A stretch of DNA of 64,000 nt, taken from the NCBI RefSeq assembly GCF_050320075.1, contig NZ_CP190018.1; one strand, 5' to 3'. Shown here piece by piece: positions 46,790 through 51,912 of this stretch. The notes beneath the pieces were generated by a model. The model was not told the DNA's origin. It ran no database searches and worked only from the letters and a program-made list of their open reading frames with translations. This stretch comes from Escherichia coli. Lineage in GTDB: Bacteria; Pseudomonadota; Gammaproteobacteria; Enterobacterales; Enterobacteriaceae. Both the position numbers and the translations under genes were made by a program. Positions within the stretch are counted from its first letter, which is position 1; each line of letters begins with the position of its first letter.

Positions 46790-47100
46790 AGGAAAAAAAT
46801 TTTTTTTCGAAAGAACTGTTCACACTGTTCACCTTTCTGTTTTCTCCTTTTATTTCAGAGTGATAGGTGGTGAATAATGGGTGAAGGGTGAACATTCGAT
46901 TCTTCACCTCCGGCATTCTGCCGGTGTGACTCATACCGGTGATTAATCCCCCGAACTGAAATCACACAGGGAGAAAAAAGTTTTTTTTTGATTTGATTGT
47001 TCACACTGTTCACCTTTCATTTTTCTCTTTAAATTTCAGTGTGATAACGGGTGAATATACGGTGAAGGGTGAACAGTGGATTGTTCACCTTCGGGGAATT
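46790..47100. repeat. P4 crr-like region: two direct copies of about 120 bp, each with TGTTCACC-type iterons
   Basis: ctgttcacactgttcacc...gggtgaagggtgaaca occurs twice (about 46815-46910 and 46995-47095); octamer TGTTCACC / GGTGAACA repeated in both orientations. Confidence 0.7.
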
Positions 47101-47139
47101 CAGGGATAAAAAAAGACCGGCAGATGCCGGTCAGGTGGG

Positions 47140-49473
47140 TCAGGCTGTCGCAGGGTCGTCACATTTTGGCAGCCAGTCGCCGTAGCTTTCCTCTTTCAGC
47201 GTCAGGTTGGTCTGTATCCCCTGTTTGGTATGGCGCTTCTCGTAATTCAGTCCGTATTCCTTCAGCATCACCGGCAGCCCCAGCCCGAACATTTTCAGAC
47301 TGAGTACATTCCGGTAGCCGTTTGCCTCCATGTAGGCCAGATAGGCGTGATAGAGGTATTTACGGTAATTACGCGGGATGATACTGGCGTTCCCCATATA
47401 CATGCCGCTGGTCTGCGGCAGGGTTTCCAGATAGCCGATAAAATCAAACGTCGGGTCGGCATCCCGTTTGATGTTCAGTGCCTCGTCTGAGTTCTGCTGG
47501 GACTGAAGCAGTGACCGGGCGAGCATCGGGTCGCTGAACTTCTGCATCAGGTGACGCACGATGACCGCCAGCTCGCGGGTGATTTTGTCCTTAAGCTGCG
47601 GGTCGCGCTCCTGCGGGGCTATCTGTTCCGGGAAGTGAATAATCACCCGCCGGCGTGACACGCCGCCGCTGCGGTCGGTGAAGCGCATCGGGTTATTGTT
47701 CACGGCCAGAATCACCGCCGGGATATGCGTGGAGTATGCATCCCGGTATTTCGGGTCAACGGACACCGCATCGCCGCCGGTGATGGCCTTGAGTCCGGCT
47801 CCGTCGCCGCTCCATTTTTCCTGGTCCGGCAGGCGTATCAGTGAGAAGCCAGTTAACGCGGCACGTTCACGCGGGGATTCCAGCGTCTCAATGGTGGCCG
47901 ACGTGGCGTTATCCTCCCCGGCCAGCAGGGTGGCTATTTCGGCCATGATACTTTTGCCGCTGCCGCCGGGACCGGTCACCTCCAGAAAGAGCTGCCAGTC
48001 GTAGCGGTTTGCCAGCACCATAAACAGTGCGGCCAGAATCACGTCGCGTTTTTCCGCACGGCCACCGGCGGCACGGTCAAGCCAGCGCCAGAACGCGGGG
48101 GCGTGGGTTTCCAGCGTTTCACCGTCCACCGGCGGGGTGAAATCCACATCGCACAGGGTGCGCATCCAGTGTGACGGACTGTGCGGGTGGAACGTGCCGT
48201 TCTGCGTGTCGAGCACGCCGTTACGAAAGCCAATCAGGCGGCGGGAGGGGGCTTCCTGCTGAGGAATAATCAGCTTCAGGGTGTCCACCACGGAGGCCAC
48301 CTTCCCGGAGGAGAACGGCGCGCGCAGACGCTGAAACAGCCCGGCCACATCCCGGGCAAAGTCCTGTGGCGGCAGCACCTTCCATACACCATTTTCATAG
48401 CGGGACAGAAGCTGGCCGTTGGCATCGACCGCGAGCGCCTCGCCGTAATGCTCATAGATACGCATGGCCTTTTCGCTGGTACTCATGGCGGAAAACTCCG
48501 CTTCGCTCATGGTGTCGAACGGGCTTTCAGCCGGTGGCCGGATGGCATCATAAATGGCCTTACGGGTGGCTTCCCCGCCGTACTGCGTGAAGGCATCATT
48601 CCAGTCACCGAAGACCGGCGGCAGGGCAACAACACCTTCACACGCATCTGCGGCTGCGGCGGCTTTTTTCTGGCCGTCACCGCTGAGGTCACGGTCAGCA
48701 GCAAGGACAATCTGACAGGCTGGATGCTTCTGCCGGGCAAGGCTGGCCAGAGAAAGGAGATTCACGGAAGAAAGCGCCACCATCACCGTTTCACCGGTCA
48801 GGTGATGCACGGTAAGTGCGGTCGCGTATCCCTCCGCTATCCACAGACGTTTTCCGGCCTGATTCTGTCCTTCAAGGGTGTGACAGGTGCCCCTGACCTG
48901 TCCGCCTTTCAGGGTGCGCTTACGGCCGTCAGCACTGATTAACTGAAGGTTAACCAGTTCGCCGCTGTCGTCATACAGTGGCACCACAAGGTCACCGGCA
49001 CGCCAGCTCACGCCACCGGCTCTGTGTGTGCCGGTCAGCATCCGGCATTCCCGGCCGGGAAAGCCCTTGCGGGTCAGGTAGGCGTTACCGGTTCCGGGAC
49101 GGGTTTTCGCCATCAGGGTTTGTGCCAGTGCGGCGGCGTTCTTCCGGGCAGCGTCTGTTTCAGCACCGGCGGCAGCCGTCACTGCCGGGTCAGCCGGGGG
49201 CAGGCTGCCGGTCACGGCAGCCACCTTTGCTGCCGCGTCGGACGGGGAAACACCAAACACCTTTTCAACCAGTTTCAGGCCGTCACCGGCACCACACTGA
49301 TTGCAGTACCAGGTGCCGCGCCCCTCCCTGTCATCAAAACGGAAGCGGTCACTCCCGCCACAGACCGGACAGGGCTGATGACGGTTTTTCAGCACCTGAA
49401 TCCCCAGCGCCGGGAGAATACGCGGCCAGTGGCCGAGCGCATGGCTGACGGTGGCGGTTACGTTCATTTTCAT
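47140..49473 (-). CDS. P4 alpha-type primase/helicase (zinc-finger primase plus helicase domain)
   Basis: 777-aa ORF (the length I recall for P4 alpha) with a Cys4 zinc-binding motif near the N-terminus (CPVCGG...CNQCGAG) and a Walker-A-like motif (TGPGGSGKS). Confidence 0.9.
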   Translation of the reverse strand: MKMNVTATVSHALGHWPRILPALGIQVLKNRHQPCPVCGGSDRFRFDDREGRGTWYCNQCGAGDGLKLVEKVFGVSPSDAAAKVAAVTGSLPPADPAVTAAAGAETDAARKNAAALAQTLMAKTRPGTGNAYLTRKGFPGRECRMLTGTHRAGGVSWRAGDLVVPLYDDSGELVNLQLISADGRKRTLKGGQVRGTCHTLEGQNQAGKRLWIAEGYATALTVHHLTGETVMVALSSVNLLSLASLARQKHPACQIVLAADRDLSGDGQKKAAAAADACEGVVALPPVFGDWNDAFTQYGGEATRKAIYDAIRPPAESPFDTMSEAEFSAMSTSEKAMRIYEHYGEALAVDANGQLLSRYENGVWKVLPPQDFARDVAGLFQRLRAPFSSGKVASVVDTLKLIIPQQEAPSRRLIGFRNGVLDTQNGTFHPHSPSHWMRTLCDVDFTPPVDGETLETHAPAFWRWLDRAAGGRAEKRDVILAALFMVLANRYDWQLFLEVTGPGGSGKSIMAEIATLLAGEDNATSATIETLESPRERAALTGFSLIRLPDQEKWSGDGAGLKAITGGDAVSVDPKYRDAYSTHIPAVILAVNNNPMRFTDRSGGVSRRRVIIHFPEQIAPQERDPQLKDKITRELAVIVRHLMQKFSDPMLARSLLQSQQNSDEALNIKRDADPTFDFIGYLETLPQTSGMYMGNASIIPRNYRKYLYHAYLAYMEANGYRNVLSLKMFGLGLPVMLKEYGLNYEKRHTKQGIQTNLTLKEESYGDWLPKCDDPATA

Positions 49474-49487
49474 GGTGTTGTTCTCCT

Positions 49488-49808
49488 TCAGTGCAGTACC
49501 GGCGCTTTTATGTGACGGGCACAGAGTTCATCCATCACAACCAGCCCGAGAAAGGACAGCGACGGCGCGGCCTTCAGGGGGCCGGATTCCATTAAATCTT
49601 CCAGCAGGGCACAGGCTATCTGACGCCCTTTTTCCTCACCGTGCTGGCGCAGATAAAAGCCTTCCAGCTCAGCGGCGATGGCCGCCTCCAGTGATTCAAG
49701 GGTGAGATGCGGGTAGCGGTGCTGACGTTCGCACACGGTCAGCCAGGCACAGGCGACAGCGCGACGGTAAAGGGCTGCGCGTAAGACGGGCGGTAAGGGT
49801 GTTTTCAT
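49488..49808 (-). CDS. P4-like left-operon small protein (106 aa)
   Basis: ORF immediately upstream of alpha on the same strand. Confidence 0.5.
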
Positions 49809-49943
49809 TTGCTTTCCTCCCTGTGACAGATGACTGCATTCCGTGCCGGTTGCATTAACTGATAAGGCATATCTGCGTCTCCTGAAGACATGCGTATCCC
49901 TGCGCGAATACGCACATTTAATTTTTCGGGTGTCGTTTTTTAA

Positions 49944-50679: not shown

Positions 50680-51076
50680 GGGACACCTCCACCACCGGCA
50701 GACGGGCAGCAAGGGAGAGCACATAGTCACGGACAAGGGAACGGCGGGCGCTGCGTTCATCACCGGCGACGGTGCGAAGCATACAGATACGGGGATGACG
50801 GTCTGCGCGACGGACAGCCGCAAACACAAAGACAAATTCAGGGTGTGAGGGGGTAAGGGTCGTAGCCATAAGGCAACCTCCGATAACAGCGTAAATGACG
50901 CTATCGCCGGAGTTCTCACGCTCGATGGCGATAGCCCAGACGGGGGTGAGAATACCGGCGTTATCGGAAACCGGCCAGCCCGGAGGCTGCCCCGCCTGAG
51001 CTACCATTGACTCAGTGGCATAACATGCGATTGCGAACAGGATCATACCTGCACGGCAAACCACACGCCACACCAT
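50672..51076 (-). CDS. Hypothetical protein in P4-like left operon
   Basis: Track ORF 211 aa overlaps vis; trimmed to internal ATG at 51076. Start uncertain; could be two smaller genes or partly non-coding (P4 cI RNA region). Confidence 0.3.
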
Positions 51077-51258
51077 AATCTGGTGCTCTGTGGCGTTGAT
51101 TGCGACACAAAAAAAGACGCATGGCGCGTCATATGTCGCCGATAACATACTCGGGTTCTCACGCCCGGCTGCCGATTTTGCGGCAGCGGAAAAACTATAT
51201 CCGCAAATGCCGGAAAAAGGCAAGCCAGAAAAAGGGAGTTTTTGCAGAGCGGGCATCA

Positions 51259-51525
51259 TCATGCGTCGTACCCCCGTTTGCGTCCGGCAATGCGTCCGGC
51301 CATCCATGCGGTGACTTCAGAGTGCAGCCAGGCCACATTTTTACCGCCAAGACTCACCTGCGGCGGAAATTCCCCCTTACGGATGAGTTCATAGATGGTC
51401 GAGCGTGACAGGCCGCACAGGTGCATCACTTCCGGCAGACGTAAAAAACGCTCCTGCGTGATGTCCGGCAGCGGCATCAGTGGCGTCACAGGGGCGGGAG
51501 ACGGGGAAGAAAAAACAGCTTGCAT
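51259..51525 (-). CDS. vis: AlpA/Vis-family HTH regulator (88 aa; first gene of left operon)
   Basis: [57 protein letters not shown] is a typical AlpA-type HTH; 88 aa as P4 orf88/Vis; just downstream of the divergent promoter/ori region. Confidence 0.75.
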
Positions 51526-51799
51526 CGGGCTACCTCGTTAATGTCCATACAGCACCGGATAAGTCCGTCCGGCTTCGGGTAGCGCTTTATTTTGTGAATA
51601 TTTTTGGCAGACGCAACAGGGGGGATTTGTTCCGGCAGCCTTACAATGCTTGTGTGTTTTTTGTTCATTCCCACTTAAAGTCATTTAAAGCCACTTAAAG
51701 CAATTCGTAATTTTTATAGTGAAATACAAATCGTTTCTTCTTATTCATTCACAGCGAATTAATAAAAACAAACAGTAGTAAACAGCACAAAAAGTCCAT

Positions 51800-51912
51800 G
51801 AGCGGGTGAACAGTGGTGAACAGACGGTGAACAGTCATTACTGCGATTGTTCACCCTTTAACTTACTGTATTACTTATCTTTTTTCTTATGGTGAACAGA
51901 GGTGAACAGTAA
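51800..51912. repeat. P4 ori-like iteron cluster (GGTGAACA / TGTTCACC octamers)
   Basis: gggtgaacagtggtgaacagacggtgaacag...gattgttcaccc...ggtgaacagaggtgaacag: at least six octamer copies, in the divergent intergenic region between vis and sid. Confidence 0.7.

Follow-up and report, generated by a model that had tools for sequence, protein, structure and literature searches.

Identity of the octamer clusters

The question raised by this 64 kb stretch of Escherichia coli DNA (the window) is whether an octamer, TGTTCACC, repeated in two clusters with a primase gene between them, marks the origin of a P4-type satellite replicon, and whether that replicon is intact or decayed. The octamer has 12 exact matches on the two strands of the window, where about 2 are expected, and 11 of these fall in the two clusters, five at 46826-47089 and six at 51805-51908. 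The probability that the clusters are an artefact of chance or composition is negligible: shuffled sequence gave a mean of 2.06 matches and a maximum of 6, none of 100 shuffles attained 12, about 0.013 matches are expected within those 405 bp against the 11 found, and the cluster positions are kept across independent genomes. The inter-cluster gap of 4,716 bp holds the 777-aa primase ORF on the minus strand and five smaller genes, and the match counts, the shuffles and the ORF position confirm the arrangement described in the initial annotation. When one mismatch was allowed, five further copies were found in the first cluster (46817, 46869, 46901, 46998 and 47050), giving five per repeat unit. 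The many one-mismatch matches at 27.5-32.2 kb were rejected as iterons, since they come from TGTTCGCC, which an adhesin gene carries repeatedly in its 291-bp repeats. A full-text literature search for TGTTCACC returned unrelated primer sequences only.

The P4 references were X51522 (also NC_001609) and X05623, whose annotations cover crr with its 120-bp repeats, both types of ori repeat (1 and 2), the rep_origin and the alpha terminator. Window positions 46794-52931 align with positions 4291-10436 of X51522 at 96.9 % nucleotide identity over approximately 6.1 kb, and the 16 'ori type 1 repeat' sites annotated in P4 all recur with position and spacing unchanged, ten in crr and six in ori, 11 being exact and five one-mismatch copies of TGTTCACC. 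The proposal that the two clusters are the P4 crr and ori is borne out by this alignment, in which no annotated iteron is missing, altered or out of register. Iterons unlike those of P4 and an inactivated alpha gene, both set beforehand as grounds for abandoning the proposal, were looked for and neither was found. Judged from the sequence, with a probability of about 0.9, the clusters make up the bipartite origin of a satellite replicon of the P4 type, one cis-acting half being ori1 and the other crr, and lie within a complete 11,259-bp P4-like prophage at selC (Table 1).

Table 1 Features of the P4-like prophage in window coordinates; the whole-feature coordinates of t-alpha were placed manually on the basis of the alignment
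Feature	Position	Strand	Remarks
attR	46641..46663	.	23-bp direct repeat of selC 3' end; prophage boundary
crr 120-bp direct repeat 1	46794..46913	+	100 % identity with P4 4291-4410 (annotation: 'crr 120bp direct repeat')
crr repeat 1 type I iterons (n = 5)	46817, 46826, 46869, 46887, 46901	+, +, -, -, +	
crr inter-repeat spacer	46914..46974	+	61 bp
crr 120-bp direct repeat 2	46975..47094	+	Aligns with P4 4471-4590
crr repeat 2 type I iterons (n = 5)	46998, 47007, 47050, 47068, 47082	+, +, -, -, +	
t-alpha, alpha transcription terminator	47108..47132	-	Hairpin core GACCGGCAGATGCCGGTC identical to P4 (annotated 4604-4628)
alpha	47140..49473	-	Primase, SF3 helicase and origin-binding protein, 777 aa; 99.4 % identical to P4 alpha
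cnr (ORF106)	49488..49808	-	P4 replicon copy-number regulator; 106/106 residues identical to P4 ORF106
ORF151	49944..50399	-	98.7 % identical to P4 ORF151
epsilon (ash)	50392..50679	-	Helper derepressor, 95 aa; 98.9 % identical to P4 epsilon
CI immunity RNA (Rfam C4 family)	50924..51011	-	RF01695, 76.2 bits
CI RNA seqB loop	50960-50967		
CI RNA targets seqC and seqA	50879-50887 and 51139-51146		
vis/alpA (ORF88)	51259..51525	-	Helix-turn-helix regulator and excisionase; 98.9 % identical to P4 ORF88; PHROG excisionase/regulator
ori type II repeats, three of 10 bp (CCACTTAAAG)	51671..51701	+	Tandem Repeats Finder; P4 9176-9205
ori1 core	51805..51908	.	Six exact octamers, in register with P4 9310-9413
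ori1 type I iterons (n = 6)	51805, 51815, 51826, 51848, 51891, 51901	-, -, -, +, -, -	
sid	52078..52812	+	Capsid size determination; 98.0 % identical to P4 Sid
delta, short form	52809..53054	+	81 aa, one Ogr/Delta zinc finger; Pfam Ogr_Delta 1.4e-18
psu	53069..53641	+	95.7 % identical to P4 Psu
cos	53806..53824	.	19-nt cohesive-end sequence GGCGAGGCGGGGAAAGCAC, identical to P4 left end
SIR2-domain cargo gene	53843..56563	-	906 aa, Pfam SIR2_2; cos-proximal hotspot, replaces P4 gop/beta/cII
Tyrosine integrase	56576..57739	-	387 aa; Pfam Arm-DNA-bind_3, Phage_int_M, Phage_integrase
attL and tRNA-Sec	57900..57996	-	attL 57900-57922, overlapping 3' end of tRNA-Sec (selC, 57902-57996)

Structure of crr and ori1

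The two crr copies are approximately 120-122 nt long (46792/46794-46913 and 46973/46975-47094) and 81 % identical. They had been described as a tandem duplication of about 120 bp, of which the two direct repeats stand but not the head-to-tail arrangement, as the repeats start 181 bp apart and a 61-bp spacer therefore separates them, as in P4. Most differences from P4 are in this spacer, which among relatives is the fastest to diverge. In repeat 2, two bases are substituted relative to P4 and 1 bp is inserted in the initial T run, none of these changes being inside iterons. The whole cluster sits immediately downstream of the alpha terminator, the alpha stop being at 47140. With attR only 130 bp away, and with the attP arm repeats of P4 also near, the left-hand cluster might instead be part of the integration module, in the form of arm-type sites for the integrase or Vis beside att and outside the replicon. 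This is very improbable, as the octamers are identical to those of ori1, P4 records annotate crr as a region required in cis for replication, and the homology with P4 sets in right at the first crr base, with an att region and an integrase unrelated to those of P4. The sharpness of this break shows that crr moves with the replication module and alpha, and not with the integration module of int and att.

The other half of the proposed bipartite origin, ori1, aligns with P4 without indels. Its iterons start 10, 11, 22, 43 and 10 bp apart, a roughly helical spacing, and include between them a 35-bp stretch (51856-51890) of 80 % A+T, which, as a point against this origin assignment, carries two substitutions relative to P4 (51886 and 51890), one of them common to other natural elements. 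The ori1 core is near-invariant in diverged elements, with one iteron mismatch among 30 copies. Iterons and A+T-rich stretch alike are essentially constant across diverged relatives from E. coli, while the crr spacer, the flanks and the type II repeats drift, the last of these not being kept.

The alpha protein differs from that of P4 by five substitutions in 777 residues (T100A, V103G, D104A, T126P and T775A), with no gaps or stops. As a further point against the assignment, four of the five group between the zinc ribbon and Toprim domains, at residues 100-126. The EGYATA motif at 214 and the Walker A motif GPGGSGKS at 501 are intact. Pfam domains Zn_Ribbon_Prim, Toprim_3, D5_N, DUF5906 and Pox_D5 were found, and the C-terminal domain is a winged-helix domain. 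Residues 671-770 of alpha match PDB 1ka8, the solved P4 origin-binding domain (E 1e-63), and contain none of the substitutions. The cnr gene lies upstream of alpha, and crr, t-alpha, alpha and cnr follow one another as in the P4 oriI replicon (ori1, crr, alpha and cnr), which has the same architecture and nearly the same sequence; differences inside the replicon are point differences only.

Replication of P4 is reportedly of the kind that follows, as is said to have been described between 1987 and 2002, and the window element is treated here by analogy. Upon derepression or excision, the C-terminal domain of alpha would bind type I iterons in ori1 as well as in crr, the helicase of alpha would open the A+T-rich stretch of ori1 and its primase would lay primers. 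Bidirectional theta replication would then be carried out by host DNA polymerase III without DnaA, DnaB, DnaC or DnaG; crr would be required in cis, and Cnr would bind alpha and restrain initiation, setting the copy number. We infer from this analogy that the window element is replication competent. The P4 ori1/crr/alpha/cnr replicon is already known, with descriptions going back to the late 1980s, and there is nothing new in ori or crr themselves. Both crr and the P4 ori have also been included in a cosmid, but were inactive there (PMC9942202).

Boundaries and state of the prophage

An exact repeat, TTTGGCGGAAGATCACAGGAGTC, at 46641-46663 and 57900-57922 constitutes a 23-bp att duplication at selC and bounds a prophage of 11,259 bp. 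The selC gene was identified by ARAGORN and by Rfam tRNA-Sec, and the clean empty site is present in K-12, where window position 46672 is joined to 57900 with a 32-bp overlap. The integrase gene has no nucleotide match to P4 int and does not encode the P4 integrase. An ORF at 44824-46008 was considered as a second integrase (tandem selC islands) and rejected, being the chromosomal MFS transporter gene setC. The cos sequence is joined directly to P4 right-end sequence, and is a P2-type site at which a helper phage would package the element.

The iterons had been taken to support a replicon that is intact and not decayed, and alone they are insufficient to show this, but independent sequence evidence supports the claim. 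The seven P4 core genes all have their full length, with substitutions biased to synonymous changes, cnr is 100 % identical to its P4 counterpart, t-alpha is intact, as is cos, the two att copies match exactly, and the loop of the CI RNA has changed relative to P4 in step with its two targets, giving a coherent immunity specificity that is not that of P4. Rfam isrK and c4-a1b1 matches were also found at 51110-51200.

The element could instead be a cryptic, non-replicating remnant in which ori and crr look intact because the time for decay has been too short, its identity to P4 being so high that few mutations had a chance to arise. P4-like elements are frequently defective, and truncated examples were found; in strain O17_K12a crr is interrupted by an IS21-family element, and in strain 2824 alpha is a pseudogene. 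A remnant is nevertheless unlikely here. No gene in the element is truncated or frameshifted, alpha has 26 synonymous versus 5 non-synonymous codon differences from P4, the exact alpha protein was found on at least 460 contigs, and the exact att duplication and intact cos likewise speak against decay, as does the co-variation of the immunity loop with both targets, a pattern that requires functional selection. Part of the near-identity to P4 could come from recent common ancestry and not from ongoing selection. On the features read from the DNA, the prophage is probably a mobilisable satellite and not a fossil, which bears on how its SIR2 cargo gene spreads.

Relatives, cargo and prevalence

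P4-like satellites are defined by a core of seven components, int, psu, delta, sid and alpA as well as epsilon and alpha (PMC8628076). As in the P4-like satellites of Enterobacterales (PMC8628076, PMC9122126), all seven are co-localised in the window element, in the standard P4 order and within approximately 11 kb, and it is a typical member with no notable difference. A cos-proximal hotspot has been described in which SIR2-domain proteins are among the known cargo (PMC9122126), and the window element resembles the P4-like satellites with such a defence hotspot in having a variable cargo gene between int and psu beside cos. Outside the replicon it differs from P4 itself in its integrase and att (selC, not the P4 site), in its immunity specificity, in having the SIR2 gene where P4 carries gop, beta and cII, and in a delta protein of 81 aa compared with 166 aa in P4, to either half of which it is only 37-51 % identical.

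In PADLOC, the 906-aa SIR2 protein matched ThsA-type SIR2 domains only, and in a PDB sequence search its residues 12-295 resembled the SIR2 domain of DSR2 (E 9e-38). No Pfam or PADLOC model and no PDB sequence matched its approximately 600 C-terminal residues. A tentative reading, held at somewhat less than even odds, is that the element is a mosaic that combines the replication and late-gene module of P4 with the integrase and att of a selC module, another immunity specificity and a delta of one finger, the junctions being precisely where crr starts on its left side and a little beyond cos, and that the DSR2-like SIR2 protein could be an uncharacterised single-gene anti-phage system.

The retronphage phiR73, a P4-like satellite at selC with a short delta and an immunity specificity unlike that of P4, was considered as the closest named element. 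Integration at selC, a short delta and non-P4 immunity are all seen in the window element too, and phiR73 stays a tentative lead; it carries retron Ec73 (reverse transcriptase and msr/msd), and the window element has no retron. Between cos and int, the 906-aa SIR2 protein is encoded by the sole ORF that reaches 100 aa; in it Pfam gave a SIR2 domain and no reverse transcriptase domain, and there was no Rfam match to a retron RNA in the element. In a phage collection P4 records were the only matches, and no cluster name carried a phiR73 label.

Among the listed matches to crr and ori in other genomes, an origin or repeat annotation was never present; the annotation was 'none' or, for three crr matches, an overlapping protein-coding gene. 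As genome annotation pipelines leave these origins unlabelled, their recognition in the initial annotation amounts to a correct annotation. Its value as a discovery is small, since nearly the same replicon is already described and P4-type crr and ori sequence occurs in about 20 %, or one fifth, of complete E. coli genomes. Of 5,426 complete E. coli genomes, 74 have the same P4-like satellite configuration.

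Iteron clusters and their correspondence to P4 ori and crr

Counting both strands, the 64-kb window contains 12 exact copies of the type I iteron TGTTCACC, whereas dinucleotide-preserving shuffles of the window average 2.06 copies and never exceed 6. Eleven of the 12 copies lie in two short stretches (see table). With about 0.013 matches expected in the 405 bp of both clusters, and with the shuffle maximum exceeded twofold, clustering of the octamer by chance is excluded. The primase gene lies between the clusters, as the initial annotation had described, and its product carries primase zinc ribbon, Toprim, D5_N, SF3-helicase-type and Pox_D5 regions in Pfam. 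The left cluster (crr) consists of two copies of a 120-122-nt unit, 81 % identical and 181 bp apart from start to start; it had been called a tandem duplication, but the units do not join head to tail and are direct repeats separated by 61 bp, the rest of that description being accurate. Five degenerate crr iterons with one mismatch (TGTTCACA twice, TATTCACC twice and TCTTCACC once) stand exactly where P4 is annotated to have them. The iterons of the right cluster (ori) start 10, 11, 22, 43 and 10 bp apart and bracket a 35-bp stretch of 80 % A+T. Periodic TGTTCGCC near-matches to the iteron are due to the 291-bp repeats of an adhesin gene, in which 19 tandem units encode Big_1/Invasin_D3 domains of a 3,709-aa inverse autotransporter (invasin/intimin-type).

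Positions of features of the P4-like element and its surroundings in the window
Feature	Position	Strand	Remarks
Adhesin gene	24020-35149	+	
Adhesin repeats	27473-32995		
rhuM-family pseudogene fragment	~46438-46565		yicT in K-12
att direct repeat TTTGGCGGAAGATCACAGGAGTC	46641-46663 and 57900-57922		23 bp, exact
crr, two 120-bp repeats	46794-46913 and 46975-47094		
Exact octamers, left cluster	46826-47089		five
alpha	47140-49473	-	777 aa
Immunity region	50794-51183		
CI target GTTATCGGA	50879-50887		
CI RNA loop CCGATAAC	50960-50967	-	
CI target GTTATCGG	51139-51146		
ori, exact octamers	51805-51908		six
delta	52809-53054	+	81 aa, one Ogr/Delta finger
Cohesive-end sequence (cos)	53806-53824		19 nt, intact
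SIR2-domain protein	53843-56563	-	906 aa, sole cargo gene of cos-proximal hotspot
tRNA-Sec	57902-57996	-	

Satellite phage P4 was the sole extensive match in a megablast search of the phage collection, with window 46794-52931 being 96.9 % identical to P4 (X51522) 4291-10436 and window 53084-53805 being 97.5 % identical to P4 10903-11624. The P4 feature tables (X51522, X05623), which come from laboratories that worked on its replication, mark out crr (4291-4590) as a "cis required region for replication" that holds ten "ori type 1" repeats and two direct repeats of 120 bp. They also list alpha and its terminator, ORF106 and nearby genes, and a rep_origin made up of six type 1 and three type 2 repeats. 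Aligned base by base, crr repeat 1 is a 100 % match to P4, and crr repeat 2 departs from P4 by two substitutions and one base inserted in a T run, none of which touches an iteron. The alpha terminator hairpin has the P4 core sequence. Around ori, 537 of 555 bp agree with P4 and no indel occurs; the ori repeats, six of type 1 and three of type 2, all keep the P4 sequence and register. The alignment thus bears out the proposal that the clusters are P4 ori and crr, and the identification as a P4-type ori/crr replicon is given a probability of about 0.9; it is a textbook P4 origin, already known, in one more P4-like prophage. Homology to P4 sets in precisely with the first base of crr. This module boundary contradicts a role of crr in integration and places it in the replication module rather than the integrase/att module.

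Replication proteins

The alpha protein aligns with that of P4 over its full length without gaps or stops and differs by five substitutions (T100A, V103G, D104A, T126P and T775A), 26 of the 31 differing codons being synonymous. The protein retains its zinc-ribbon cysteines, the primase motif EGYATA at residue 214 and the Walker A motif GPGGSGKS at residue 501, and inactivating mutations, named beforehand as what would count against an intact replicon, were not found in the alignment with P4. Residues 671-770 match the solved P4 origin-binding domain (PDB 1ka8, E 1e-63) and contain none of the five substitutions, so this alpha should recognise iterons with the specificity of P4 alpha. Copy number of the replicon is regulated by Cnr (ORF106), which agrees with P4 at 106 of 106 residues. 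As judged from sequence, no part of the P4 oriI replicon is missing in cis or in trans, and the parts are essentially as in P4. By analogy with P4, the C-terminal winged-helix domain of alpha would bind the type I iterons at ori and crr, alpha would unwind the A+T-rich stretch as helicase and do the priming itself, and replication would proceed bidirectionally from ori without need of host initiator, helicase or primase; crr would be needed in cis, and a Cnr-alpha interaction would limit initiation.

The element at selC, its immunity region and its cargo

In the E. coli chromosome the element is flanked by nlpA, yicL and setC at one end and by selC, yicJ and yicI at the other, with the 3' end of tRNA-Sec forming the second att copy. 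K-12 MG1655 represents the empty site, its match stopping at window 46672 and resuming at 57900 with a 32-bp overlap, which gives an insertion of 11,259 bp (P4, 11,624 bp). A full-length tyrosine integrase adjoins selC, and identity to P4 is 96-99 % for ORF151, epsilon, vis/ORF88, sid and psu. The seven core components by which P4-like satellites are defined (PMC8628076) are thus all there, in the usual P4 order. Between setC and attR, outside the prophage, lies a short fragment of a rhuM-family pseudogene; K-12 has it too, so it is a scar that the selC locus acquired earlier. Window 44000-46673 (yicL-setC) matches the "Campylobacter phage" records MG065686 and MG065691 at 97.5 %, and these probably contain contaminating E. 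coli sequence.

A sliding identity profile against P4 has two divergence islands in the aligned part, the immunity region and delta; P4 has a 166-aa double version of the latter, and the sid-delta-psu block is otherwise P4-like. The rest of P4 (gop, beta, cII, int and attP) is unaligned and absent from the element, which has the SIR2-domain protein and a different integrase in its place. Residues 12-295 of the SIR2 protein resemble ThsA and the SIR2 domain of DSR2 (PDB 8k98, E 9e-38), the other ~600 residues have no match in Pfam, PADLOC or PDB sequences, and the exact protein is present on 646 contigs. The defence hotspot of P4-like satellites is cos-adjacent, between int and psu, and SIR2-domain proteins are among its cargo (PMC9122126).

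Rfam assigns the CI RNA to C4 and places the isrK and c4-a1b1 target motifs upstream of it, as in P4. In this stretch (window 50879-51200, minus strand) the CI loop differs from that of P4 (CCTGTGAA), and both targets, TTCACAGG(A) in P4, are complementary to the loop and altered in step with it; cross-matches of the element loop with P4 targets, or of the P4 loop with element targets, occur in neither direction. This three-way covariation is a coherent switch of immunity specificity, so the element should be heteroimmune to P4, and is good evidence that selection acts on the regulatory circuit that lies upstream of alpha. That the element is a dead remnant which looks intact only because it is recent is unlikely, given this covariation, the synonymous bias of the alpha codon changes and the lack of a lesion of any kind in the element. 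The same points support the earlier view of an intact satellite replicon, which is likely to be actually competent.

Spread and conservation in E. coli

Of 5,426 complete E. coli genomes, 1,076 have a P4-type crr and 1,005 a P4-type ori, in every case on the chromosome, and 74 have the whole setC-element-selC configuration; none of the listed crr and ori matches in these genomes is annotated as an origin or a repeat. At least 460 contigs encode the exact alpha protein, which belongs to a 90 %-identity cluster of 11,119 members. When crr and ori are aligned across E. coli elements of increasing divergence, iterons and A+T-rich stretch are essentially invariant and the crr spacer, type 2 repeats and flanks drift, the pattern expected of sites that would be constrained by protein binding. 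Decayed replicons were seen in E. coli O17_K12a, in which crr repeat 2 is truncated beside an IS21-family (ISEc12) istB gene, and in E. coli 2824, in which alpha is an N-terminally truncated pseudogene and the crr repeat 1 iterons are degenerate.
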